A stretch of DNA of 64,000 nt, taken from Saprospiraceae bacterium (GTDB taxonomy: Bacteria; Bacteroidota; Bacteroidia; Chitinophagales; Saprospiraceae). Shown one piece after another: positions 10,299 through 58,734 of the stretch. The notes under the pieces were generated by a model. It was not told the DNA's origin. It was given only the letters and a program-made list of their open reading frames with translations, and searched no databases. The stretch's first letter is position 1, and each line of letters starts with the position of its first letter. Position numbers and translations under genes: made by a program. The DNA is taken from positions 4,178,499 to 4,242,498 of the forward strand of contig OZ245751.1 in the NCBI GenBank assembly GCA_965227445.1, in the 5' to 3' direction.

Positions 10299-11111
10299 AT
10301 GGAACAGAAATTCATTCAATCCCTATACGATGCACACCAGCGGGCACCACGCATGCCCGAACCAGCTTTAGTTTGCAACTGGCTGGAAGGCTTACTCGGT
10401 GTGCTTTTTCCGGAATTTTCCAATCATCGCTACCGCTCACACCGGGAGTTCACACAGCATTTCGGAGACTTACAGCTTGAACTCTTTCGCATTCTGCAGT
10501 CCCTCGACGATCGGCATGGTGTCGTTCCTGAGCACGTGGAGCATCAATTCATGGAACGGTTGCCCTTCGTGCGCGACCTCCTGCTGCAAGATGCCGACGC
10601 CATTTTAGCTGGTGACCCGGCAGCTGTCAGCTTAACGGAAGTGATACGCACCTATCCGGGTTTCTACGCCATTGCGGTGTATCGCCTCGCCCATGAATTT
10701 CAGCAACTGCAGATTCCTCTGATCCCGCGCATCCTCACCGAACACGCACACAGTAAAACAGGCATCGACATTCACCCGGCGGCCCGAATCGGACCGGGCT
10801 TTTGCATTGATCACGGTACCGGGGTAGTGATCGGAGAAACCTGTGACATCGGACACCAGGTAAAAATTTACCAGGGGGTCACCCTCGGTGCCCTGAGTGT
10901 TCGCAAAGATCTGGCGCGCACCAAGCGCCACCCCACGATTGAGGATCGGGCGATCATTTATGCCGGCGCTACCATTCTGGGTGGCGATACGGTCATTGGC
11001 CACGATACGATTATCGGTGGTAATGTCTGGATCACCAAGAGCGTTCCGCCGCATTGCCGGATTTACTATACGGGATATATTCGCCAACAGGAAGCCGCCG
11101 GGAAGGAGTAA
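10299..11111 (+). CDS. cysE: serine O-acetyltransferase
   Basis: Hexapeptide-repeat region DIHPAARIGPGFCIDHGTGVVIGETCDIGHQVKIYQGVTLG, typical of CysE. Confidence 0.8.
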   Translation: MEQKFIQSLYDAHQRAPRMPEPALVCNWLEGLLGVLFPEFSNHRYRSHREFTQHFGDLQLELFRILQSLDDRHGVVPEHVEHQFMERLPFVRDLLLQDADAILAGDPAAVSLTEVIRTYPGFYAIAVYRLAHEFQQLQIPLIPRILTEHAHSKTGIDIHPAARIGPGFCIDHGTGVVIGETCDIGHQVKIYQGVTLGALSVRKDLARTKRHPTIEDRAIIYAGATILGGDTVIGHDTIIGGNVWITKSVPPHCRIYYTGYIRQQEAAGKE

Positions 11112-30174: not shown

Positions 30175-30295
30175 GCGACGCGCAGTAAACTAAGTGTCGC
30201 GTTTGGCCAGACAGGTGCTTTCTTTACCTCTCAAAAAAACACCTAGCCCATATTTTCGCACCCTGTTATACACCTATAAACCTATACACAAAGCC

Positions 30296-30934
30296 ATGCG
30301 TGAATTTCTGGAGGTAGCCCTGCTACCGGTCAACCTTTTCTACACCTTCCTGCTGCTATTCATGTTGGTGTACTGGCTGTCCGTCATCTTCGGAGCCCTG
30401 GATGTGCATTTCCTGGATTTCGATCTGGATGCGGACCTCGATGCCGACCTGGACCTCGATGCCGACGTGGATGCCCACATCGGTGGCGGATGGCTGGCCG
30501 GAACCCTCCAGTTTTTCAATATTGGCCGGGTACCCTTCATGACCATCCTTACCGTAGTGATCCTGAATAGCTGGATCCTTATGCTACTGGGTAACTACTA
30601 CCTCGGCCAGAACAGTTGGTGGTTTTTTGCCGCTGCCTTCATCCCCGTCTTATTTGTCAGCCTACTTATCGCCAAACTGATCACCACTCCGCTCATACCT
30701 GTATTTGACCGATTGAATACTGCTGCTGAACCCGTTGTGTATCTGGGACGCGAAGGGCGCCTCCGCCTGCCGGCCAGCTACGAAATGTTCGGACAGATGG
30801 AAGTCGTCATTGACGATAGCTCCTTCCTGTTAAGTGTTCGTACAACTGGTCCCGAAACGACAATACCGTCGGGGACGGATGTACGCATTGTTGACCGGCT
30901 TGAGAACGGCCAGTTTGTAATTGAAAAATGCTAA
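30296..30934 (+). CDS. YqiJ/NfeD-like membrane protein (flotillin partner) with acidic D-x repeat
   Basis: Start taken at the internal ATG at 30296. TM helices, HFLDFDLDADLDADLDLDADVDAH repeat, and a C-terminal NfeD-like OB-fold region GQMEVVIDD...VRIVDRLENGQFVIE. Immediately upstream of flotillin. Confidence 0.55.
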   Translation: MREFLEVALLPVNLFYTFLLLFMLVYWLSVIFGALDVHFLDFDLDADLDADLDLDADVDAHIGGGWLAGTLQFFNIGRVPFMTILTVVILNSWILMLLGNYYLGQNSWWFFAAAFIPVLFVSLLIAKLITTPLIPVFDRLNTAAEPVVYLGREGRLRLPASYEMFGQMEVVIDDSSFLLSVRTTGPETTIPSGTDVRIVDRLENGQFVIEKC

Positions 30935-30946
30935 AACCTCGCCAAT

Positions 30947-33055
30947 ATGTTTGCTAACACCGCTCTGCTAATTTACCTGGGTATCGGCCTTTTTGTGCTG
31001 CTGGGCATCTTCTTCATGATCGCCAAATGGTATAAAAAGGTACCCCAGGGGAAGGCTATGATAGCTACCGGTTTTCGCGGAACCCGGGTAGCTTATGAGA
31101 ATGGTCTCATGGTCATCCCTATTTTTGAGATGTACGAACAGATGGACCTGTCGGTAAAAACCATCGAGATTCAACGCATGGAAAAGGACGGCCTGATCTG
31201 TAAGGACAATATCCGCGCCGACATTAAGGTCGTATTCTTTGTCCGCATCAATAAGGATGAAGCCGACATCAAAAAGGTAGCCCAGTCCATCGGTTGCGAA
31301 CGGGCCTCTGACCTGAATACCCTGCGGGAACTCTTCGAGGCAAAATTCTCCGAAGCTATCAAAACGGTCGGGAAGCGATTCGACTTTGTCGAACTCTACG
31401 ATAATCGCGAGAAGTTTAACCTGGAGATTCAGAATACCATCGGGGAATACCTGAATGGTTATAAACTGGATGATGTGTCCATCGATTATTTGGAGCAAAC
31501 CGACCTGGATTTCCTCAAAGTGGATAATATCCTGGATTCGGAGGGTATCAAAAAAATCACCGAACTCACGGCCCAGCAAAAGATCAAGGCCAACTTCATC
31601 CGCCGTGAAGAGGAAAAGACCCTCAAGGAACAAGACGTCGAAGCCCGCGAAGCCATCCTCGAATACGAACGCCAACTGGCGGAGAAGGAAGAACGACAAA
31701 AGCGGGAAATCGCCAATATCAAAGCCCGGGAAGGAGCGGAGATCGCCAAGATAAACGAGGAGGAGCGCTTGCGGTCCGAGATTGTCCGCATCAAAACCGA
31801 AGAAGAACTCGCTATTGCCGAAGAGAATAAAAACCGCCAGGTGATCGTCGCTGCCAAGAATAAGGAGCGCACCGATGTGGTAGAAACCGAACGCGTAGAG
31901 AAGGATCGTGCCCTGGAACAAACCGAACGCGAAAAGATCGTTGCCCTGGCCGATATCGAAAAAGAGCGCGCCCTGGAGGTGGAACGCAAAAACATCCAGG
32001 ATGTCATTCGCGAGCGCGTAATGGTCGAGAAAAAGACCGTCGAGGAAGAAGAGCGCATCAAGGACACCCGCGTTTTGGCCGAAACCAACCGCCTGAAGGA
32101 GAAGACCCTCATCGAGGCCTCCGCAACCGGTGAAGCCACCGTCATTGAGCAAGAGCGCAAAGCGGAAGCTCAGCGCCAGGCAGCCGAGATCCAGGCCAGG
32201 ACGCTGATTATCGAAGCTGAAGCACACAAAGATGCTGCCACCCGGGAAGCCGAAGCCCGCAAGATAAAGGCCGAAGCTAAAGCCGCCGAAGAAGCCACCA
32301 TTGGACTTTCCGAAGCACAGGTCATCGAGGCCAAAGCTAAAGCGGAAGAGCTACACGGCGAAGCGGAAGCCCGCGTACTGGAGAAGAAAGCTATTGCCGA
32401 AGCTACCGGCATCGAAGCCAAGGCCAAGGCCCTTCGCGAGCAAGGCCTGATGGAAGCAGAAGTGGCTCGCCAACAGGGCAACGCGGAAGCCGAGGTCATG
32501 GAACAGAAGTACGCTGCCGAAGCCAAAGGAGTGGAAGAGAAAGCCCTGGCCATGCAGAAACTCGACGGCGTCGGAAAAGAACACGAAGAGTTCAAACTAC
32601 GACTGGAAAAAGACAAGGCTGTCGAGCTGGCCCATATTGGCATCCAAAAGGATGTGGCCAACGCCCAGGCCGATGTTTTGGCGGAAGCCTTAAAACAAGC
32701 CAACATCGACATCATCGGTGGCGAAATGCAGTTCGTCAACAGCATCCTGAACTCGATCAATCGCGGCCGCAACATCGACGGCCTGATCGACAACAGTCAG
32801 CACCTGCAAGACCTGAAGTCATCCCTGATCGGAAACGGAAGCAACGGCAACGCCGGTGGCCTGTTTACCCAGATCAGCGGACTGCTGCAACGCTCTGGGC
32901 TTAAATTGTCCGACGTAAAGGATCTGACCCTGACGGCCCTGCTGATGCAGGTGCTGGATAAGAGCGATAAGGATGAGAAAGGGGCTATTCAGCGACTGAT
33001 CGACCGCGTAGAAGAACTCGGGATCGGTAAACTGAAAACAGAACACCTGATGTAG
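30947..33055 (+). CDS. flotillin-family SPFH/Band-7 protein (YqiK/FloT-like)
   Basis: N-terminal TM followed by an SPFH domain, then a very long Glu/Ala-rich coiled coil (AEAEAHKDAATREAEARKIKAEAKAAEEA...). 702 aa. Confidence 0.8.
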   Translation: MFANTALLIYLGIGLFVLLGIFFMIAKWYKKVPQGKAMIATGFRGTRVAYENGLMVIPIFEMYEQMDLSVKTIEIQRMEKDGLICKDNIRADIKVVFFVRINKDEADIKKVAQSIGCERASDLNTLRELFEAKFSEAIKTVGKRFDFVELYDNREKFNLEIQNTIGEYLNGYKLDDVSIDYLEQTDLDFLKVDNILDSEGIKKITELTAQQKIKANFIRREEEKTLKEQDVEAREAILEYERQLAEKEERQKREIANIKAREGAEIAKINEEERLRSEIVRIKTEEELAIAEENKNRQVIVAAKNKERTDVVETERVEKDRALEQTEREKIVALADIEKERALEVERKNIQDVIRERVMVEKKTVEEEERIKDTRVLAETNRLKEKTLIEASATGEATVIEQERKAEAQRQAAEIQARTLIIEAEAHKDAATREAEARKIKAEAKAAEEATIGLSEAQVIEAKAKAEELHGEAEARVLEKKAIAEATGIEAKAKALREQGLMEAEVARQQGNAEAEVMEQKYAAEAKGVEEKALAMQKLDGVGKEHEEFKLRLEKDKAVELAHIGIQKDVANAQADVLAEALKQANIDIIGGEMQFVNSILNSINRGRNIDGLIDNSQHLQDLKSSLIGNGSNGNAGGLFTQISGLLQRSGLKLSDVKDLTLTALLMQVLDKSDKDEKGAIQRLIDRVEELGIGKLKTEHLM

Positions 33056-33069
33056 TGTTATCGAATCGA

Positions 33070-33106
33070 AAGGATACGGATTAGAAAAGTCTATTCCGCA
33101 TCCTTT
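33070..33106. terminator. putative bidirectional terminator hairpin
   Basis: AAGGATACGGA...TCCGCATCCTT 11-bp stem with one mismatch, between convergent flotillin and Uma2 genes; overlaps the Uma2 stop. Confidence 0.4.
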
Positions 33107-33708
33107 CCCTTCTCAGCCGACCGGAATACATCTGACAGGTCTATTGCCAGTTCCGGGAATACATTGGATTGGACTTGATCATCCTCTGCAAGCGGTCGAT
33201 GACCTATGAACCGTCCCTCTTCATTGAGGACGTACATGATCAATACCTTCTGCAACGGATCGATCAGCCAGTATTCCGAAACGCCCGATTCCTGATAGAC
33301 ATCAAACTTTTCGGTCATTTCCGTCTTGGCATTACCGGGCGATAGGACTTCGATCACAAGGTCCGGTGCACCGTCGCATCCCTTTTCATCGAGTTTGTCA
33401 GGATCGCACACCACACAGAGATCTGGTTGAACAACGGTGAACGTCTGGTCTCCCTTTGGGACCGGCAGACGAACATCAAAAGGTGCTGGGAAAAATTGAC
33501 AGGAACGATCCTTAAAGTGATACCAAAACAGGCCGTAGAGATTACCAGCTATCCGCTGGTGCTCTTTACCCGGAGCGGGACTCATTTTGACCAGGCGACC
33601 ACGAATAAGTTCTACCCGTTCCTTGAAGGCCCAGGTCAGATAATCAGCGAAGGAATACTGCTTAGAAGTATCGAGTTGGTCAAGACTGGTGACGATCATT
33701 TGCTCCAT
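33091..33708 (-). CDS. Uma2-family (DUF820) putative restriction-endonuclease-like protein
   Basis: ...KMSPAPGKEHQ...PDLVIEVLSPGN...EKFDVYQESGVSEYWLIDP motif pattern of the Uma2/PD-(D/E)xK family. Confidence 0.7.
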   Translation of the reverse strand: MEQMIVTSLDQLDTSKQYSFADYLTWAFKERVELIRGRLVKMSPAPGKEHQRIAGNLYGLFWYHFKDRSCQFFPAPFDVRLPVPKGDQTFTVVQPDLCVVCDPDKLDEKGCDGAPDLVIEVLSPGNAKTEMTEKFDVYQESGVSEYWLIDPLQKVLIMYVLNEEGRFIGHRPLAEDDQVQSNVFPELAIDLSDVFRSAEKGKDAE

Positions 33709-33743
33709 TTATGGAAAAATACAACTAATTAAACTGCCAAACA

Positions 33744-36700
33744 ATGACCCAGAAGGCCCAAACAACCCTGGAAGGCGGTAGCTACGAGATCATTCGCAAG
33801 CGCTTATTGGAGCAAGCCGGAGAGCTCCGCCAGCGACTGCAAATGCTGAATACTGCCCGTAAGGATGTGTTCGGAGCGATCGAGAATACCCTCATCGCCA
33901 ACGAACGCATTCATACGGGTAACTACTGCATGGCCCGGGATATGGTCGCCCTCGGTGACTACTGCCTGTTTGGGTACAATGTGCATATCGGTTTGCGGTC
34001 GGGCATTGTTCTGCAGGATGTGTTCAGCATCTATACCTTCCGGGATCAATCGTTCGGAGAGGGGTCCCTGAATCTGATACAGGATGAAAAGTTCGTCACT
34101 GATTTCCAAAACCTCTACCGCTACTATAAAGACGCTTACTTCGCTCGCTTTTCCCGGCGAGGGCGGTACCTGTACATGGTGTTTTACCTCAGTGAAAAAG
34201 GAGAGGATATCAAGGCCTTCAAATGGCTGATTACCGATGATGGTCTCGAGTACATCGACAATCGGTCGGATCACGAGGTGGGCCTGCCCGATCAATACGA
34301 ATTCCGCTGGAAAGTCGCCGGCCGGGACGATCAACGCCGGGGAGCTCATCCGCACGTATCCATTCTGGATAGGGTGTTCGTGGAAACCCTTGGCGGAGAT
34401 CTGACCATTAAGGTGGAGGACAATACCGATGATGGGATGGGCATCCTCAGGGAACCCGTGGAACATCGCGACCAGACCCTCGACGATGCCGAGTTTCACT
34501 ACGCCGATCTGGGCAACCTCATTGCCCTGAAGATTCGACCCTACCAGGAAGAGCCACGGTATTTTATCTTCAACGAAAAGATACAGCAGGCCCTGCGCAT
34601 CGATGCCCTGGACCGCTCCGGTGTTTTGCTACCCGATCAGCAAGGCCTGATCTTCGCCAATGGCTACTACCTGCAAACCGGTGAATACAAAGTATTCGAC
34701 AACCAGCCCGAGTACCTGCAATTTAAAAAGCGGGTCGTATCTCCTAATGGGGAGGATTTTCTATTTGTATTCTACGCGCCGAAAGAAGGGCAGTACTGCC
34801 TGCACCACTATAACGTTATTGAGCAAACGGTCGCCACCCCCATCCTTTGCCATGGTTTTTCCATTTTTCCCGATGGTGAAATGGCCTATTTTAAGGCCGA
34901 AGATGAACCCACCAAACACCACCAGGTACAGATATGGCAAACGCCTTTTCTCGCCGGGGAGACCATTCCCTCGGAGCATACCGACAACTACCTCTTTAAG
35001 GTGGGTAATAAAGACCTGGTGAAGGCCATGGCCGAATGCCAGGAGATCTTATCGCTTACGCAAAAAGAAGACTCCTACGCCGACCTCTACGATGATCTGG
35101 TCCGGCGAACTACCGATGTACTGGATTCCTATTACTGGATTGGTCAGGCCGATACTTTTCGCCTCGATGAGCCGCTCGAAGCCCTGCGGGAAACGGCGCG
35201 TTCGGCCATCGGCGAATTCGAGAAAAAGCGCCGCCAGGAGCGGGAAACCCGGGAAGCTACCGAGCGGGTGCGAACGGAAGCCATCAACCTCTTCGAGCAG
35301 ATCAAACGGCAGACCTTCAACAGCATTGATCTGTTCGTCGGCAGCCTGGCCGACCTGCGTCGGTTGCGAGGGGAACTGGTCGGCCTCAAAGAGCGAAAAT
35401 ACGTGGACCTGGAGTTGGTCGAACAGCTGGAAGAGCAAGCGGGTAAGGCCAACGAACGCCTGTCAAATGATTGCGTCCAGTTCCTCCTGCAGGAAGAAGC
35501 CCTGAGTCCTTACGATGACCGTATCCAACAGGCAAGTCAGGGCATTGACCAACTGGCCACCGCCCGGGAAGCTGGTGAACGGGCCGAGACATTCCAGGAA
35601 ATCAGCAATGAACTGGAACTCCTGACGGAGATCGTGAGCAACCTTAAAATTGATGATGCTACCCAGACGACCCACATTATCGATCAGATCTCCGGCCTGT
35701 TCACCCTGCTGAACCAGTCGAAAGCTTCCCTGAAGCGCCACAAAGAAAATCTGCAGCGCACCGAAGCGACGGCAGAGTTTACGGCCCAACTAAAATTACT
35801 TGACCAAAGCACCATCAACTACCTGGACGTAGCTGACACCCCCGAAAAGTGTGACGATTACCTCAGTAAGATCATGGTTCAGCTGGAGGAACTCGAGAGT
35901 AAATTCGTGGAGATACCGGAATTTACCGAACGCCTGGCCGAAAAACGGGAAGAGATCTACGGTGCTCTGGAGGGCCGGAAAAACCGCCTGATCGAGGCCC
36001 TCAATAACCGCACCACCTCCCTGGTTTCTGCGGCAGATCGCATCCTCAGTGGTATTCGTAAACGCGTGCATGCATTCAAAAAAGCAGAAGAACTCAACAG
36101 CTTTTTCGCCGCCGACCTGATGGTGGAAAAAGTGCGGGATCTGGCTCGTCAGCTTACGGAGCTGAACGACAGCACTAAAGCCAATGGTGTGCTGACACGT
36201 CTCAAAACCCAGAAAGAAGATGCCTTGCGCCAATTACGCGACAAGCAGGACTTATTCGTAGATGGTGAGGACCTGATCAAGCTGGGACGGCATACCTTCA
36301 CCGTCAGTACCCAACCACTGGAGCTTACGGTGGTGCGGCAGGGCGAACAAATGGCCTTCCACCTCACTGGTACCAATTTCTACGATCCGATTGAGGATCA
36401 GTCTTTCCAGGCTACCCGCCCGATTTGGGATATGCAACTGCCCTCCGAAAATGAAGAGGTTTATCGCGGGGAATACCTGGCCTGGGAATTACTGCCCCTG
36501 GCCACCGAAGCGCCGTGGCCAACCGATGATTTTCCGGCTCTGCTCAAAATGGTACGGGCGGAGGCCGCCAAGCGCTACGAAGAGGGCTACGTAAAAGGTA
36601 TCCACGATGAAGATGCCACACGTATTTTAGCTGCCTTACGGCAAAAAAGCCAGGCGTTAGGCTTATTGCATTATTCATCACGGGTCCGCGCCTGTGGTTG

Positions 36701-38612
36701 CTTGTACTGGCACCATTTCCTGGAAACTGACCAGCGCAAGCATCTGGACCAGCAACTGGCTCATGCCGGACAGATTTTGCGGGTATTTCCCCGTACCAAA
36801 GAGTTCGATTATTTGCGGGGTGAACTGCGCAGTGCGCTGCAAAGGTTAAACGACCAATGGCAAATCTTTCCCGACTTCCTCATTCCGGAAGCGGCTGCTT
36901 ACCTATTCGAAGAGCGCGTACGTCGCCGCACCGGCTTTGTATCGGCACCCGAAGCGGCCGAATTATACAATGCCTTTTGGCAAACCATTACATCGCAAAA
37001 GGCCGTCGAAACCATCCGGGAAGGACTGGAAGAACTTGCTGAGCAACCCCTGGAGCAGTATCACCTGGTCAGGCAGTGGGTGTACGCTTTCCTGGAAACA
37101 AAATCTAATGGCGGCCAGCATGCCCTACTCGACGAAATCTCCTGCCTGGTGGTTATCGATGATTTTACGATCGACCATGCGGGCGAAGTATCCGCCCAAA
37201 GCACCCTGGAAGGGCTACGCGGCGACCATCCCCTTTTGCCGAAAGGCAAATACAAACTGAACTACCACGAGTTGACCGATAAAATGGAGCGGTTCCGGAA
37301 TGAAACGCAGCCCCTGTACCAACAATTTGCCGATCTGAAACGAACCCTGACCGAGGCTTTCCGGAAAGAAGCCCAACTGGATTCCTTTACGCCCAGGGTG
37401 CTCAGTTCCTTTGTCCGCAATCAATTGATTGATCAGGTCTATCTACCGATTTTCGGCGATAACCTGGCCAAGCAGATCGGTACGGCCGGCGAGCAAACCC
37501 GCACCGACCGCATGGGCATGCTGCTGTTAATTTCCCCACCCGGCTACGGGAAGACCACCTTGATGGAATACATCGCCGACCGCCTGGGCCTCATATTCGT
37601 GAAGGTGAACGGCCCGGCCATCGGACACCGGGTGACGGGCCTGGCCCCGTCCGATGCACCCACCATCGCCGCAGCCAACGAGCTGGAAAAACTGAACCTC
37701 GCCTTCGAGATGGGGGATAATATTATGCTGTACCTCGATGATATCCAGCACTGCCATCCCGAATTTCTCCAGAAATTCATCAGCCTGTGCGATGCCCAGC
37801 GCAAGATTGAAGGCGTGTATAAAGGAGAAGCCAAAACCTACGATCTGCGGGGACGGCGGGTCTGTGTAGTCATGGCCGGAAACCCCTATACCGAGCAGGG
37901 TGAGCGTTTTCAAATCCCGGATATGCTGGCCAACCGGGCCGATATTTACAATCTGGGAGATATCATTGGCGATAGTAAGGATGTTTTCGAGCTTAGCTAT
38001 CTGGAAAATGCACTTACCTCTAACGAACACCTCCAGGACCTGGTGGCGGGAGGACTCGACAATGTGTATGCCCTACTGAAAGCGATGAAGCAAGGGTCCA
38101 TGGAAGGAATTGACCTGAAAGGGAATTACGCACCGGAAGCTATCCGGGACTTCCAGGCTGTTTTGACAAAGATGGTACGCATCCGCGATGTTGTGCTGCG
38201 GGTTAACCAGGAATACATACGATCAGCTGCCACGGATGATGCTTTCCGTACCGAACCGTCCTTCAAATTGCAGGGTTCCTACCGAAATATGAATAAGCTG
38301 GCAGAAAAGGTAGTGCCCATAATGAACGAAGAGGAATTGAATACCCTCATCCTGGCCCATTACGAAGGGGAGTCCCAAACCCTGACTAGTGATGCCGAAG
38401 CCAACTTTCTGAAACTGAAGGAAATCATGGGGGCCCTCACCGAAGAAGAAGCCACCCGCTGGGAAGCCATTAAAGCGACTTTCGTCAAAAACAAACGCTT
38501 CTTCGGCGCAGACGGCACCGACCGCATGGCCCAGATCCTGGCCCAAATGGATGTATTTAACGAAAGTGTGCTGGGAATCCGCGATGCACTGCAAGGACGG
38601 AAGGACGGCTGA
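33744..38612 (+). CDS. giant (1622 aa) coiled-coil protein with C-terminal MoxR/AAA_5-like P-loop ATPase domain; function unknown
   Basis: About 450-aa globular N-terminal region, about 500-aa heptad-rich coiled coil, Walker A LLLISPPGYGKTTLMEY, Walker B-like IMLYLDDIQH, sensor VVMAGNPY. Stop codon is supplied by the first unit of the heptamer array. Confidence 0.6.
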   Translation: MTQKAQTTLEGGSYEIIRKRLLEQAGELRQRLQMLNTARKDVFGAIENTLIANERIHTGNYCMARDMVALGDYCLFGYNVHIGLRSGIVLQDVFSIYTFRDQSFGEGSLNLIQDEKFVTDFQNLYRYYKDAYFARFSRRGRYLYMVFYLSEKGEDIKAFKWLITDDGLEYIDNRSDHEVGLPDQYEFRWKVAGRDDQRRGAHPHVSILDRVFVETLGGDLTIKVEDNTDDGMGILREPVEHRDQTLDDAEFHYADLGNLIALKIRPYQEEPRYFIFNEKIQQALRIDALDRSGVLLPDQQGLIFANGYYLQTGEYKVFDNQPEYLQFKKRVVSPNGEDFLFVFYAPKEGQYCLHHYNVIEQTVATPILCHGFSIFPDGEMAYFKAEDEPTKHHQVQIWQTPFLAGETIPSEHTDNYLFKVGNKDLVKAMAECQEILSLTQKEDSYADLYDDLVRRTTDVLDSYYWIGQADTFRLDEPLEALRETARSAIGEFEKKRRQERETREATERVRTEAINLFEQIKRQTFNSIDLFVGSLADLRRLRGELVGLKERKYVDLELVEQLEEQAGKANERLSNDCVQFLLQEEALSPYDDRIQQASQGIDQLATAREAGERAETFQEISNELELLTEIVSNLKIDDATQTTHIIDQISGLFTLLNQSKASLKRHKENLQRTEATAEFTAQLKLLDQSTINYLDVADTPEKCDDYLSKIMVQLEELESKFVEIPEFTERLAEKREEIYGALEGRKNRLIEALNNRTTSLVSAADRILSGIRKRVHAFKKAEELNSFFAADLMVEKVRDLARQLTELNDSTKANGVLTRLKTQKEDALRQLRDKQDLFVDGEDLIKLGRHTFTVSTQPLELTVVRQGEQMAFHLTGTNFYDPIEDQSFQATRPIWDMQLPSENEEVYRGEYLAWELLPLATEAPWPTDDFPALLKMVRAEAAKRYEEGYVKGIHDEDATRILAALRQKSQALGLLHYSSRVRACGCLYWHHFLETDQRKHLDQQLAHAGQILRVFPRTKEFDYLRGELRSALQRLNDQWQIFPDFLIPEAAAYLFEERVRRRTGFVSAPEAAELYNAFWQTITSQKAVETIREGLEELAEQPLEQYHLVRQWVYAFLETKSNGGQHALLDEISCLVVIDDFTIDHAGEVSAQSTLEGLRGDHPLLPKGKYKLNYHELTDKMERFRNETQPLYQQFADLKRTLTEAFRKEAQLDSFTPRVLSSFVRNQLIDQVYLPIFGDNLAKQIGTAGEQTRTDRMGMLLLISPPGYGKTTLMEYIADRLGLIFVKVNGPAIGHRVTGLAPSDAPTIAAANELEKLNLAFEMGDNIMLYLDDIQHCHPEFLQKFISLCDAQRKIEGVYKGEAKTYDLRGRRVCVVMAGNPYTEQGERFQIPDMLANRADIYNLGDIIGDSKDVFELSYLENALTSNEHLQDLVAGGLDNVYALLKAMKQGSMEGIDLKGNYAPEAIRDFQAVLTKMVRIRDVVLRVNQEYIRSAATDDAFRTEPSFKLQGSYRNMNKLAEKVVPIMNEEELNTLILAHYEGESQTLTSDAEANFLKLKEIMGALTEEEATRWEAIKATFVKNKRFFGADGTDRMAQILAQMDVFNESVLGIRDALQGRKDG

Positions 38613-38995
38613 CGGCTGACGGCTGACGGCTGACGGCTGACGGCTGACGGCTGACGGCTGACGGCTGACGGCTGACGGCTGACGGCTGACGGCTGACGGC
38701 TGACGGCTGACGGCTGACGGCTGACGGCTGACGGCTGACGGCTGACGGCTGACGGCTGACGGCTGACGGCTGACGGCTGACGGCTGACGGCTGACGGCTG
38801 ACGGCTGACGGCTGACGGCTGACGGCTGACGGCTGACGGCTGACGGCTGACGGCTGACGGCTGACGGCTGACGGCTGACGGCTGACGGCTGACGGCTGAC
38901 GGCTGACGGCTGACGGCTGACGGCTGACGGCTGACGGCTGACGGCTGACGGCTGACGGCTGACGGCTGACGGCTGACGGCTGACGGCTGACGGCT
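38604..38995. repeat. perfect tandem heptanucleotide microsatellite (GACGGCT)x56
   Basis: 392 bp with no interruptions, read directly from the sequence; the reverse strand encodes (SRQPSAV)n. Confidence 0.95.
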
Positions 38996-39099
38996 AAGTT
39001 TTTATTTCCACTACACCGAGCCAAATTCTTGGGCCAAAAATTTGTCTGCTTTTATGGGCAAATCCGATGCTGTTATGAATCGCAATAAGCAAACCGTTT

Positions 39100-39581
39100 A
39101 CCGTAGGCCGTGAGCCGTGGGCCATGGACCATGGACCTTGCAGGCTGACCGGGAATAGAAAAAGTCTCCTGTTTTTTAACTGCTTCCCTCATTTGTTATC
39201 AATAAGAGTTTTGAGTATCCGTACAGCCCGCATGGTCATCAGAATTACTCCATGAACGGAGGCACTTAATGCTGTATGGGAACGACTTTTAGAACGTGCC
39301 TAACGGCACTCTTGGACATCCTGCTGCTCACTCCGCACCGGCTAACGCCGGCGCTACATGAAGGTCGTGCCTAACGGCACTGGTACAAATAAAGGTACAT
39401 GATTGAAAGACTCAATTTATGGAGTATCAATGTATGTGTTGAGTTCCCGGTCAGCCTGCTTGGACCGTGAACCGTGAACCGTGAACCGTGAACCGTGGAC
39501 CGTGAACCGTGGGCCGTCTACCTTGGACCGTGGACCTTAGACCTTGGCAGCCCCACTTCACACCTCCTACTTCCTACTTCA
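39100..39581. repeat. degenerate heptamer runs (CCGTRGG/CCATGGA; GAACCGT x about 12; TACTTCC x3) with a 16-bp hairpin direct repeat between them
   Basis: 39100-39145 has CCGTAGG CCGTGAG CCGTGGG CCATGGA CCATGGA. 39462-39550 has GGACCGTG AACCGTG x5... 39561-39581 has CACCTCC TACTTCC TACTTCA. CGTGCCTAACGGCACT occurs twice at 39295 and 39357. Confidence 0.6.
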
Positions 39582-39681
39582 TTTCTATGTGACAAAGATC
39601 ACTGGGTGGCATTGAGATATCTCATGCATTACCAGCCCTTACTCCCCCCATATTTGTCCCAGAACAAATCAACAAGATATT

Positions 39682-40278
39682 ATGAAGACCACTTATCAAA
39701 TGTTACTCACCGCTGTGCTCCTGATCGGAGCCGTTGGTCTGACTGCTCAGAATACATTCGGAGTTTCCGAATGCTCCATAAAGATCAATGGTACTTCATC
39801 CCTGCACGATTGGACCTCTACGGCCGAGGACGTATCCGGCACAGTCCAACTGGATGTAGCCAACCAAACGCTGAATGCCATTAAAGCTCTGACGGTTCGG
39901 ATAAAATCCGAGGGTGTTAAGAGCGAAAAGGGTCGCATCATGGATAATAAGACCCATAAGGCCCTGGCTGCTGATGATCATAAATACATCACTTACGCAC
40001 TCACCAAGGCGAGCATCACTCAGCAAAACGAGCAAAAAGTTACCGTGCGCGCCACCGGCGCCCTGACCATTGCCGGTCAGACCAAGACCATCACCATGGA
40101 TGTAACCGGAACAAAAAAGAACGGTTCCATACAATTTACCGGCAGTAAGGCCCTGAAAATGACTGACTTCGGCATTGATCCACCCACCGCTATGCTGGGT
40201 ACTCTCAAGACCGGAGATGACATTACTATTGATTTTTCACTAACACTTAAGACAAACACGTCCGATAGTAGCCGATAA
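39682..40278 (+). CDS. YceI-family periplasmic protein
   Basis: Signal peptide; ...KMTDFGIDPPTAMLGTLKTGDDITIDFSLTL YceI C-terminal signature. Confidence 0.75.
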   Translation: MKTTYQMLLTAVLLIGAVGLTAQNTFGVSECSIKINGTSSLHDWTSTAEDVSGTVQLDVANQTLNAIKALTVRIKSEGVKSEKGRIMDNKTHKALAADDHKYITYALTKASITQQNEQKVTVRATGALTIAGQTKTITMDVTGTKKNGSIQFTGSKALKMTDFGIDPPTAMLGTLKTGDDITIDFSLTLKTNTSDSSR

Positions 40279-44644: not shown

Positions 44645-45310
44645 GGGACTGGAGGGAACGGAGGGACTGAAGTGACCGGAGAGACTCGTCTGGGCCGGGC
44701 TGCTTTAGTTATGTCTGGCTGCTGTATCTCTGCTCTTTATTGCGTAGTGCGTAGTGCATCGAGCGTAGAGACAGGGAGCGACTGTCGAGAACAAAGAGAC
44801 TGGAGAGAATGAAGAGACTGGAGGGACTCGTCTGGGCCGGGCTGCTTCGTTTTGCTGGTAGCTGCTGTGTCTTTGCTCTAGATTGCGTAGCGCATTGAGC
44901 ATTGAGCGTAGGGGGCCAACGCAAGAACGGTGCGCCATGAAACACTGTGAACCACCGCCCGTACGGGCTGCGCTCACCGCGTGAAAAAGGTAGATTTAGA
45001 GTTTAGACTCAAGATTAAAGACTGAAGACTGAATTCGAAATCGGAAATCGGAGGTCGGAAATCGGACGGTTAATGACTTCACTCCCACCGCTGAAGCGGA
45101 TGGGCTTAAACTGCCAACCGCCAACTGAGAACTGGAGACTGCCTACTGAGAACTGCCTACTGAGAACTGCCTACTGAAGACTGAATTCGAAATCGGACGG
45201 TTAATGACTTCACTCCCACCGCTGAAGCGGATGGGCTTAAACTGCCAACCGCCAACTGAGAACTGGAGACTGCCTACTGAGAACTGCGAACTGCCTACTG
45301 CCAACCCTCC
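44645..45310. repeat. composite mosaic repeat (left copy): heptamer-word region, an 85-bp core, then two units of about 120-150 bp
   Basis: The 85-bp core CACCGCCCGTACGGGCTGCGCTCACCGCGTGAAAAAGGTAGATTTAGAGTTTAGACTCAAGATTAAAGA is near-identical to 50507-50580. The units contain TCGAAATCGGACGGTTAATGACTTCACTCCCACCGCTGAAGCGGATGGGCTTAAACTGCCAACCGCCAACTGAGAACTGGAGACTGCCTACTGAGAACTGC. Confidence 0.75.
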
Positions 45311-50314: not shown

Positions 50315-51045
50315 ACTTGCGTCGAGCGTGGAGCGTAGGGACTGGGAGTGACTGAAGTGAACGAAGCGACCGGAGGGATTCGCCTGAGCCTGGCTGCCTC
50401 GTTTTGCTTACGGCGATTGGATCATTGCTCTTGATTGCATGGAGCGTAGTGCGTCGGGCGTCGAGCGTCGAGCGTGGAGCGTGGAGCGTCGAGCGTACCA
50501 CGGAAGCACCGCCCGTACGGGCTGCGCTCACCGCGTGAAAAAGGTAGATTTAGAGTTTAGACTCAAGATTAAAGATTGAAGACTGACTTCGAAATCGGAC
50601 GGTTAATGACTTCACTCCCACCGCTGAAGCGGATGGGCTTAAACTGCCAACCGCCAACTGAGAACTAGAGACTGCCTACTGAGAACTGCCTACTGAGAAC
50701 TGCCTACTGAGAACTGCCTACTGAAGACTGAATTCGAAATCGGACGGTTAATGACTTCACTCCCACCGCTGAAGCGGATGGGCTTAAACTGCCAACCGCC
50801 AACTGAGAACTAGAGACTGCCTACTGAGAACTGCCTACTGAAGACTGAATTCGAAATCGGACGGTTAATGACTCCAATCCCACCGCTGAAGCGGATGGGC
50901 TTAAACTGCCAACCGCCAACTGAGAACTGGAGACTGCCTACTGAGAACTGCCTACTGAAGACTGAATTCGAAATCGGACGGTTAATGACTCCAATCCCAC
51001 CGCTGAAGCGGATGGGCTTAAACTGCCCACTGACAAATCGTGCCT
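50220..51045. repeat. composite mosaic repeat (right copy): heptamer-word region (GAGCGTN)n, the 85-bp core, then four units of 145/117/117/about 80 bp
   Basis: Same orientation and near-identical to the left copy at 44645-45310. GAGCGTC GAGCGTG GAGCGTG GAGCGTC heptamers at 50459-50495. Confidence 0.75.
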
Positions 51046-57504: not shown

Positions 57505-57930
57505 TGAATGCTCAATATGAGTTTGCTTTTTGGGCTTTCGCCAGGCTTCAGTGGGCAGTAGGCAGTTTAAGCCCATCCGATTCAGCGGTGGGAGTGGAGT
57601 CAGTAACCGTCCGATCTCGAAGTCAGTCTCCAGTTCTCAGTTGGCAGTAGGCAGTTTATCTCCGATTTATTGCCATCAGTCGCTAACGCTCGTGTCCGGT
57701 TTCAAAATGCCTGCTCAACTCCGCTACGGTGAGCATTGCAGGTTGAGTTGAAAACCGTGAACCGTGCCCGCCTACCGAAGCTTTGCGTAGGCAGGGACCG
57801 TGAACCACTAAAGTGGTATGATGCTGGGGGATTCCGCTTTAACACCACAGCTGAAGCTGGGGCCTGATAATTATCCTGCCACGTGGTGCCTGAACCGTGG
57901 ACCGTGGACCGTGAGCCGTGAACCTCAAAC
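57505..57930. repeat. inverted, diverged copy of the mosaic repeat unit plus (GAACCGT)-type heptamer runs
   Basis: 57552-57672 is the reverse complement of the AAGCCCATCCGCTTCAGCGGTGGGAGTGAAGTCATTAACCGTCCGATTTCGA unit with about 10% divergence. ACCGTGAACCGTG and CCGTGGACCGTGGACCGTGAGCCGTGAACC recall 39462-39550. Confidence 0.6.
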
Positions 57931-58680
57931 GTTCGAATCCATCCAGATCTGCCATTGGCCTTCGGCATTGCGGCGCCAGATCAGGACGTACTTCCCTCCG
58001 TAGCTACCGGAGCACTGCCCGATCTCCAGAACCAGGTCCTTGCGCACCGGCTGAACCACCAGGGGGCTGAGGTGTAACGAATACTCTTCGTTATTCATGT
58101 AGCTGTACGTCGACGTGATCTGCTCACGCCCGACGATCATTGGCCGGTGATTGTAGTAGAGGGCTTCGGGTTCGTATAGTTGCTCTACCAGTGCGGCAGC
58201 ATCGTGCTCATTACACAATTCGATCCACTTGTCACGGGCCTGGTCAAGAGAAGCAAGGTCGGTACGACCGGGCGCCAAAGGCGCTACAAAATCCAATTCC
58301 CGCAGGTATTGCCCGTTTACCTCACGCCAGATCACCAATTGGATGTAATCGGGACCACTGGCGGGTTTTAACCGGCTGATATCGTAGCGAACATCGGTAT
58401 TGGGATTAGCAAGCTCGCAAAAGATGGGCTCTATGGAATTGACGGTCTGTTGCCGACTCAGCAGGGGCGCCAGGTACTTTTGCCGCTCTCCGGCAGTAGT
58501 AATCTGTCGTCCTTCTCCCGTAAGGGTGATGGCATGCCCGGTGTAATGCTTTTGAATGTATTGCGGCTGCTCGTTGAGCAGGCGTTGCCAGATGTGGTTC
58601 GCTGCTTCACATTCAGTGGGCAGATTAGTCGCTGGCGGGACAGACATCCCTACCAGGAGGTATAGAATAACGGTGAGCAT
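57925..58680 (-). CDS. NTF2-like fold protein, two tandem DUF4440/SnoaL-like domains
   Basis: Signal peptide; two repeats ending ...LVIWREVNGQY and ...YVLIWRRNAEGQWQIWMD. Confidence 0.4.
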   Translation of the reverse strand: MLTVILYLLVGMSVPPATNLPTECEAANHIWQRLLNEQPQYIQKHYTGHAITLTGEGRQITTAGERQKYLAPLLSRQQTVNSIEPIFCELANPNTDVRYDISRLKPASGPDYIQLVIWREVNGQYLRELDFVAPLAPGRTDLASLDQARDKWIELCNEHDAAALVEQLYEPEALYYNHRPMIVGREQITSTYSYMNNEEYSLHLSPLVVQPVRKDLVLEIGQCSGSYGGKYVLIWRRNAEGQWQIWMDSNV

Positions 58681-58689
58681 AGTTAATTA

Positions 58690-58734
58690 GGTTTGAGGTT
58701 TGAGGTTTGAGGTTTGAGGTTTGAGGATTTGAGG
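58690..58734. repeat. tandem heptamer (GTTTGAG)x5 plus a degenerate sixth unit
   Basis: Read directly; abuts the start codon region of the 57925-58680 gene. Confidence 0.85.

Follow-up and report, generated by a model that had tools for sequence, protein, structure and literature searches.

A perfect 56-unit heptanucleotide array at the stop codon of a Saprospiraceae AAA+ gene, probably grown from two terminator-like hairpin arms

In a 64,000-nucleotide (nt) stretch of a Saprospiraceae bacterium genome (contig OZ245751.1 of assembly GCA_965227445.1; hereafter the window), the gene for a large AAA+ ATPase ends inside an uninterrupted tandem array of 56 copies of the heptanucleotide GACGGCT. 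We propose, with a probability of roughly 0.7, that this array is a non-coding, hypermutable simple sequence repeat (SSR) which arose from the two arms of a terminator-like hairpin at the AAA+ stop codon, that it probably still forms the 3' end of the messenger RNA (mRNA), and that it is otherwise neutral. Judged from the sequence, it switches no gene on or off. The array is of an already known kind, the long SSRs of the 5-11-nt class (the long simple sequence repeats, LSSRs, of Mrázek et al. and the TAACTGA repeats of MacGregor), and an analogue of the short tandemly repeated repetitive (STRR) sequences of cyanobacteria.

Results

The array and the stop codon it supplies

The features at the 3' end of the AAA+ gene are the following.

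33744..38612, + strand: AAA ATPase gene, 1622 amino acids (aa), with DUF3686, DUF7902 and AAA domains (Pfam)
38590..38603, + strand: two degenerate units, GGACGGA AGGACGG, in register with the array and encoding the final residues G-R-K-D
38604..38995, + strand: perfect tandem array (GACGGCT)x56, 392 base pairs (bp), exact identity, on the sense strand relative to the upstream AAA+ gene
38610..38612, + strand: TGA stop of the AAA+ open reading frame (ORF), straddling the first two units (final T of unit 1 plus GA of unit 2)

A first-pass annotation of the window had described a perfect 56-unit array that supplies the stop of the AAA+ ORF as GGC TGA at 38607-38612. Both points were borne out: a direct sequence check, Tandem Repeats Finder (TRF) and an exact-run scan agreed on (GACGGCT)x56 at 38604-38995 with 0 mismatches, and the TGA lies at 38610-38612. 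The period-7 register stops sharply at both edges of the array, not one base further on either side. Coding overlap is confined to the first 9 nt, comprising the last two AAA+ codons and the stop, and the other 383 nt are intergenic.

GACGGCT has 61 matches in the window versus 6.7 expected, so the array cannot be attributed to chance. Only 5 of these matches lie outside the array (~6.7 expected), and the unit is therefore not a dispersed motif. Immediately upstream, the last AAA+ codons, GGACGGA AGGACGG, look like decayed array units; TRF calls the same degenerate stretch (38593-38608) as a twofold repeat of AAGGACGG. A CRISPR (clustered regularly interspaced short palindromic repeats) array was rejected, as it had been in the first-pass annotation, since the units are of 7 nt and without spacers, versus repeats of ~24-48 nt and unique spacers.

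Relatives carry two short blocks in place of the array

Syntenic contigs were found by a YceI protein search and contig look-ups, and share the gene order Band_7 protein, AAA+, YceI, porin-like protein, YceI and onwards. The nearest AAA+ orthologues belong to uncultured Saprospiraceae metagenome-assembled genomes (MAGs) and Tara Oceans marine contigs, with 91% aa identity for locus L001 and ~62% for Phaeodactylibacter. Three related lineages were compared: L001/L204-L209 (L204-L209 being from Tara Oceans marine metagenomes), L211/L212, and L213.

In all three lineages the AAA+ gene ends in GGC TGA, followed by CGGCT, a spacer of 40-41 nt, a second block ACGGCTGACGGCT (GACGACT in L211) and a T-rich tract that reads GAGTTTTCCTTTTCC, AAGTTGTTTTTTC or AAGATTTCTC. 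Directly 3' of the shared stop codon, the relatives carry GGCTGACGGCT. Their GACGGCT units, counted in L204, L211 and L213, number 1.6 + 2, split by the spacer. Because GGC TGA CGGCT is present in orthologues without the long array, the stop codon is ancestral, and since the split blocks recur in three lineages, the ancestral state consists of two short direct heptamer blocks around a spacer, with the stop in the first block. This ancestral arrangement is read from the relatives' sequences. The window, by comparison, lacks the spacer: its blocks are joined in a single unbroken array, with the homologous tract AAGTTTTTATTTCC right behind it.

An intermediate count was found in a 1.6-kilobase (kb) metagenome contig (L136), which carries (GACGGCT)x9.7, is 91% identical in nucleotides to the window over YceI, and has a right flank homologous to that of the window (AAGTAGTTCTTTCC ... 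TTGTCTGCTTTCTGGAGCAATTCC). Flanks homologous to the window's post-array region were found in L204, L213 and L136. Unit number, whose comparison across related isolates the first-pass annotation had proposed as a check, thus differs among relatives: 56 in the window, 9.7 in L136 and 1.6 + 2 in the three lineages.

Heptamer variation in this region is not restricted to GACGGCT. In the nearest YceI lineage (L201/L202, 93% aa identity), the contigs begin and end within other heptamer arrays, while L204 carries ~14 units of a TACTTCA/TACCTCC heptamer immediately 5' of the YceI promoter block, compared with 2.3 units at this site in the window. Since different units have expanded in different lineages, the whole AAA+/YceI spacer is a field of heptamer gain and loss.

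Two further observations concern the orthologues themselves. The AAA+ orthologue of L211 (2758-7625) is split into two called ORFs (425 + 1194 aa), and that of the near-identical L212 is intact, at 1622 aa; the split call may reflect a frameshift, a pseudogene or a sequencing error. In L005, a more distant Saprospiraceae MAG, a simple repeat GGATTTTT / TTGGATTTT lies directly 3' of the AAA+ orthologue (~10915-11000).

Unit number is predicted to leave the flanking genes unchanged

As 7 is not divisible by 3, gain or loss of units had been expected to shift the frame of any overlapping gene. The simulations do not support this. Alleles with n = 1, 2, 3, 10, 55, 56 and 57 units all encode the identical 1622-aa protein, with the end GIRDALQGRKDG (...GRKDG), and in the allele with one unit the flank provides a GGC TAA stop. 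Only n = 0 would lengthen the protein, by 28 residues; the AAA+ product is thus predicted to be constant for every n >= 1. A homologue search returned orthologues of equal length both within Saprospiraceae and in many further phyla; identities to the AAA+ protein are 40-63% across Bacteroidota, Verrucomicrobiota, Planctomycetota, Betaproteobacteria, Myxococcota and others. The C-terminus encoded in the window lies at the family-typical place, GIRxAL plus 3-6 aa, and the Phaeodactylibacter orthologues stop 3-4 residues earlier (...ALEAG*).

Downstream, the spacer between the array and the YceI gene contains the following elements.

38996..39009, + strand: T-rich tract AAGTTTTTATTTCC, directly after the array, homologous to the post-hairpin tract in relatives
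39036..39065, + strand: short block AAAAATTTGTCTGCTTTTATGGGCAAATCC, kept among relatives (comparison)
39101..39137, + strand: degenerate heptamer array CCGTGRG / CATGGAC (TRF), interrupted by the insertion that follows
39140..39459, no strand assigned: insertion resembling a miniature inverted-repeat transposable element (MITE), 320 bp, bounded by perfect 16-bp terminal inverted repeats GCAGGCTGACCGGGAA and found at none of the related loci
39459..39547, + strand: degenerate heptamer array ACCGTGA / GGACCKT, ~12 units, 80-83% matches (TRF)
39588..39681, + strand: YceI promoter-proximal block, six lineages, 83% mean column identity
39588..39603, + strand: TGTGA-N6-TCAC motif, invariant in six lineages, with a Crp/Fnr-like consensus
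39614..39623, + strand: palindrome GAGATATCTC, invariant in six lineages
39649..39656, + strand: CATATTTG box, Bacteroidetes -7-like, invariant in six lineages
39682..40278, + strand: YceI-family gene, 198 aa (Pfam), the downstream neighbour

From the end of the array to the YceI ATG at 39682 there are 686 nt, in agreement with the 690 bp first given. The conserved promoter-proximal block starts ~590 nt past the array, with the MITE-like insertion and the degenerate heptamer arrays in between. The MITE-like element, which has two GTGCCTAACGGCAC hairpins inside, is the sole copy within the window. Since the protein is identical at any n >= 1 and the YceI block is far off, slippage would toggle no ORF or promoter. 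Unit gain or loss is therefore predicted to alter neither of the two flanking proteins, nor the conserved YceI promoter region.

On the opposite strand, one ORF runs through the array.

38557..39024, - strand: antisense ORF, 155 aa, with a TTG start at 39024, 9 codons ahead of the array

Frame translation confirmed that TGA occurs every 21 nt in all three plus-strand frames. For the minus strand, where a single open frame had been reported, all three frames are in fact open and each reads (SRQPSAV)n, because a 7-nt unit is read in triplets. Only one of them has a start codon before the array (TTG 39024), and the antisense ORF has no counterpart in the relatives without the array.

Period-7 repeats throughout the window

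TRF reports 19 arrays of period 7 (or 14/21/28) across the 64 kb examined, spread over 7 intergenic regions and covering 1208 of ~10446 intergenic bases (about 12%), where intergenic is defined against a simple map of long ORFs. The preference for this period is marked: exact runs of at least 3 copies number three for period 7 and one for period 14, with none for periods 4-6 and 8-13. All 19 arrays lie outside long ORFs, bar two overlaps of 9 nt (the AAA+ gene) and 13 nt (a doubtful ORF on a repeat element). By way of control, ~1.1 Mb of loci around AAA+ homologues from other taxa contained no period-7 run.

The arrays occupy varied positions: at a stop, 8 nt before a start, or in the middle of a spacer. 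The minus-strand gene 57925-58680 is framed by two of them, with (GGTYCAC)n at 57891-57924 directly adjoining its stop codon (0 nt) and (CAAACCT)x6.4 at 58689-58734 ending 8 nt ahead of its start, the position that MacGregor gives for TAACTGA repeats (PMC4679880). That 18 further intergenic arrays are found in all positions indicates a mutational property rather than a dedicated switch. Within the window, the GACGGCT array is the most extreme of these repeats, and it is one example of a propensity of the whole lineage to lengthen 7-nt intergenic repeats.

Folding of the repeat and its terminator-like context

In RNA, the quasi-palindrome CGGCUG pairs with itself through four G-C and two G·U pairs, leaving an A·A mismatch every 7 nt. 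Folds computed on 12 units (84 nt) gave the following energies and z-scores.

Sense RNA, 12 units: -49.5 kcal/mol, z -9.85
Antisense RNA, 12 units: -14.7 kcal/mol, z -0.96
G-rich strand as single-stranded DNA, 12 units: -21.3 kcal/mol, z -6.75
Complement as single-stranded DNA, 12 units: -1.8 kcal/mol, z +2.46

The sole terminator-like match in 38300-39750 consists of the last array units and AAGTTTTTAT, with AAGUUUUUAUUU following the hairpin. In the consensus fold of the relatives, the two heptamer blocks pair with one another and make up the outer hairpin stem. Scanning the window in full against Rfam at gathering thresholds returned no hit, and hence no known RNA family to account for the array or the neighbouring stem-loop repeats.

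Distribution of the unit in metagenomes

Among the matches listed, at least 120 metagenome contigs carry four or more tandem GACGGCT units, with GC contents of 0.35-0.76 and arrays of 4-18.6 units; the 56 units of the window are by far the longest GACGGCT array among them. The ceiling of 18.6 units is probably set by short-read assembly. Given the number of contigs and their range of GC content, GACGGCT arrays are widespread and taxonomically scattered. Many are flanked by the related heptamers GCTATCA, GCTGATG and GCTGAAA. A role of such arrays as general 3'-end terminators was considered and rejected: a T-run follows 11 of the 115 arrays among the matches listed, and the ORF context, analysed at 120 of the metagenomic loci, is too noisy in high-GC contigs. 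A literature search for heptanucleotide or tandem repeats in Saprospiraceae returned nothing relevant.

Genes and repeat elements around the AAA+ gene

The AAA+ gene closes a conserved three-gene cluster (30194-38612, + strand) encoding proteins of 246 aa, 702 aa and 1622 aa (DUF3686+DUF7902+AAA), the second of which is a Band_7/SPFH protein according to the precomputed Pfam assignment of its orthologue. A Uma2-family endonuclease gene (33091-33708, - strand; PADLOC candidate PDC-S03) separates the AAA+ gene from the Band_7-like 702-aa gene. The window and L211/L212 carry it and L001/L204 lack it (gap of ~7-13 nt), so that the operon differs between lineages by the presence or absence of this insertion. 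Neither PADLOC nor NCBIfam assigned the AAA+ protein or its two upstream partners to a defence system or a named family, exact-protein look-ups with the AAA+ and YceI proteins matched no record, and a literature search for DUF3686 found no papers.

Elsewhere in the window, a stem-loop element CCCACCGCTGAAGCGGATGGGCTTAAACTGCC occurs in seven copies within 117-145-bp tandem units (45058-45302, 50577-51027 and, in reverse, 57561-57592). The remainder of each unit is made of AACTGCC / TACTGAG / GAAATCG heptamers, yielding a composite resembling repetitive extragenic palindromic (REP) elements and MITEs, with no Rfam match.

Discussion

The comparison with the relatives leads to the hypothesis of an origin in a few steps. 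The ancestral hairpin and T-tract would have served as the terminator of the AAA+ gene. A deletion between the direct blocks, with loss of the spacer, would then have left a pure seed of 3-4 units, which replication slippage could have lengthened, possibly aided by the CGGCTG quasi-palindrome, as the G-rich strand is predicted to be hairpin-prone and its complement is not. No substitution interrupts the array, which implies that slippage turns units over faster than point mutations accumulate. Mechanistically, the present array would be transcribed as the tail of the AAA+ mRNA and fold as a long, G·U-containing hairpin followed by UUUUU. At most, it would act as an oversized intrinsic terminator or 3' stabiliser, and it would otherwise be selectively neutral.

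Several observations weigh against this proposal. The count of 56 units is taken from the assembly sequence by itself. L136 is a weaker orthologous allele than its right flank suggests, for its left flank (1387-1613, 227 nt) is unrelated to the AAA+ gene and has no match in the window or any fetched locus; either synteny may be lost right at the array in this contig, or short reads may have been joined into a chimera there. Regarding the terminator, the one match found compares with 0.9 expected by chance, the hairpins of the relatives are no better than shuffled sequence (z -0.76, -0.09 and +1.83), and T-runs are infrequent after the metagenomic arrays listed above (11/115). The other heptamer arrays of the window, when folded, showed no structure on either strand, so hairpin formation cannot be the general cause of the heptamer expansions of this lineage. 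Neutrality, finally, is deduced from the absence of an affected ORF or promoter.

Among the other explanations, a contingency (phase-variable) locus was the one put forward in the first-pass annotation: slippage by 7-nt units would change the reading frame or the expression state of a gene that overlaps or adjoins the repeat, as in hmw1A, hmw2A or neuO. The repeat is indeed pure, long and of a unit length not divisible by 3, heptamer SSRs in a 5'-untranslated region (5'-UTR) do drive graded phase variation (PMC12721329), and the part of the claim that concerns unit number stands, given the differences between relatives. The switching part is not supported. In contingency loci the SSR sits inside an ORF or at a promoter or 5'-UTR, and its unit number alters a protein or an ON/OFF state; here the array begins at a stop codon, and in silico neither effect appears for n = 1 to 57, the AAA+ protein staying the same while the YceI ATG and its promoter block remain hundreds of nucleotides away behind a MITE. 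Considering also that 18 other intergenic heptamer arrays in 64 kb point to mutational bias, and that the host is a free-living marine Saprospiraceae and not a host-adapted pathogen, we judge this reading very improbable. A function on the minus strand is barely credible. It would require a small protein initiated at TTG 39024, with an (SRQPSAV)n domain and a C-terminus set by n mod 3; the three open frames, the listed 155-aa ORF and a 96-aa antisense ORF that the gene caller placed at the same position in L213 would fit, but openness is the arithmetic outcome of the unit sequence, the TTG start precedes the array by only 9 codons, the ORF extends in antisense over the conserved AAA+ 3' end, and relatives that lack the array also lack the protein. 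We also find it extremely improbable that the array is a hotspot of recombination or rearrangement, marking a synteny breakpoint, or a protein-binding array titrating a DNA- or RNA-binding factor, as MacGregor proposed for TAACTGA. L136 shares the array and right flank with an unrelated left flank, and rearrangement and translational-regulation roles have been suggested for heptamer arrays (MacGregor 2015, PMC4679880); yet every other syntenic contig keeps the order AAA+, array site, YceI; L136, a short-read contig of 1.6 kb, may be a chimera; and GACGGCT singletons are not over-represented, giving no sign of a binding-site network.

Two alternatives leave the array at the 3' end but question its neutrality or its length. 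A selected 'rheostat' in the 3'-UTR or terminator, in which the length of the self-pairing array tunes termination, yceI read-through or AAA+ mRNA stability (e.g. through RNase III) and copy number acts as a heritable, reversible dial, is unlikely in our view. It draws on the folding of sense-strand RNA only (z -9.85 vs -0.96), on the U-tract kept directly 3' of the array, on the heptamer blocks forming the outer hairpin stem in relatives, and on the action of RNase III on the hmw heptamer-SSR hairpin of H. influenzae (PMC12721329); it is countered by the shuffle-level hairpins of the relatives, by the lack of sense-strand structure in the other window arrays and by the restriction of the 56-unit expansion to one lineage. 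If true, a G·U-rich double-stranded RNA rod of up to ~190 bp would terminate transcription, block 3' exonucleases or recruit RNase III, and slippage would tune the DUF3686/AAA+ (Band_7-associated) operon or yceI read-through, a 'volume' variation from the 3'-UTR. To our knowledge, neither phase nor 'volume' variation acting from a 3'-UTR has been described in bacteria. An assembly artefact, in which the repeat exists and its length or perfection stems from the assembler or polishing (collapse or expansion of a graph loop), seems quite unlikely. A perfect 392-bp repeat is longer than short reads, the contigs of relatives break at heptamer arrays, and the metagenomic GACGGCT arrays listed reach at most 18.6 units in short-read assemblies. 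However, the window is contiguous through the 117-145-bp tandem units and the MITE, which suggests long-read data, L136, an independent contig, shows the right flank of the window next to 9.7 units, and the ancestral seed is present in relatives.

We retain the proposal of a hypermutable, non-coding SSR born from hairpin arms. It offers an unusually clean view of the birth of a bacterial microsatellite, in which hairpin-arm blocks would have been fused by the loss of a 40-nt spacer and expanded to 56 units. It also illustrates that a unit length indivisible by 3 does not by itself make a long perfect SSR a contingency locus; what matters is where the repeat lies with respect to ORFs and promoters. 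A marine Saprospiraceae thus joins the heptanucleotide expanders, alongside some Cyanobacteria, Beggiatoaceae, Burkholderia and a few Bacteroidetes. The polymerase footprint may be one candidate cause of intergenic heptanucleotide expansion, and a replication or repair peculiarity driving genome-wide 7-nt expansions in this Saprospiraceae lineage is a possibility. In practical terms, heptamer arrays break short-read assemblies, as seen in the relatives whose contigs end in them, and would suit strain typing.

Comparison with known systems

Taken globally, the array displays the traits of LSSR/STRR-like repeats: 56.0 perfect copies of a unit in the 5-11-nt range, far beyond chance; a location outside coding sequence; many companion arrays with period 7 dominant within 64 kb; and unit-step copy-number differences between lineages (56; 9.7; 1.6 + 2). 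Cyanobacterial STRRs are dispersed intergenic tandem heptanucleotides, with several units per genome and no established function. Those of heterocystous cyanobacteria were reportedly described by Mazel et al. in 1990, STRR1-3 being CCCCAGT, TTGGTCA and CAACAGT. STRR in the strict sense is ruled out, as the unit is GACGGCT and the nearest relatives are Saprospiraceae (Bacteroidota): with another phylum and other units, the likeness is one of analogy, not membership.

A closer match is provided by the LSSRs. As summarised in PMC4679880, Mrázek et al. (2007) found heptanucleotides to be the most abundant LSSRs of 5-11 nt in many non-pathogens and proposed polymerase slippage as their source. The arrays of the window share with these, as far as that summary describes them, the 7-nt head-to-tail arrangement, the non-coding location, the occurrence of many arrays beyond chance with period 7 dominant, and presumed slippage. 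They differ in that Saprospiraceae are not among the genomes named in the summary, and in that the birth of the GACGGCT array from two hairpin-arm blocks can be reconstructed. MacGregor (2015) described intergenic TAACTGA and other heptamer repeats in Beggiatoaceae, Cyanobacteria and five Bacteroidetes, in up to 43 copies, with strain differences in 7-nt steps, close relatives without arrays and contigs that break inside them (PMC4679880). The GACGGCT array resembles these in being intergenic, mixed with other heptamers in one spacer, subject to 7-nt-step insertions and deletions, absent in relatives and associated with contig breaks. Its 56 perfect units exceed the maximum of 43 in that survey, its unit, unlike TAACTGA, self-pairs as RNA, and, as it does not lie beside a start codon, the binding role proposed for a translational regulator is not transferable.

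The resemblance to heptanucleotide contingency loci is more superficial. In H. influenzae hmw1A/hmw2A, (ATCTTTC)n lies in a 5'-UTR hairpin that is processed by RNase III (PMC12721329), and neuO of E. coli K1 is given as a heptanucleotide contingency locus in PMC13001214. To the extent that these accounts describe them, both loci share with the GACGGCT array a 7-nt unit and slippage-driven changes in copy number, and hmw also a transcribed long RNA hairpin. Their repeats, on the other hand, lie between promoter and start or within the ORF, so that expression varies with the count, whereas the GACGGCT array is placed past a stop codon and far from the next promoter.

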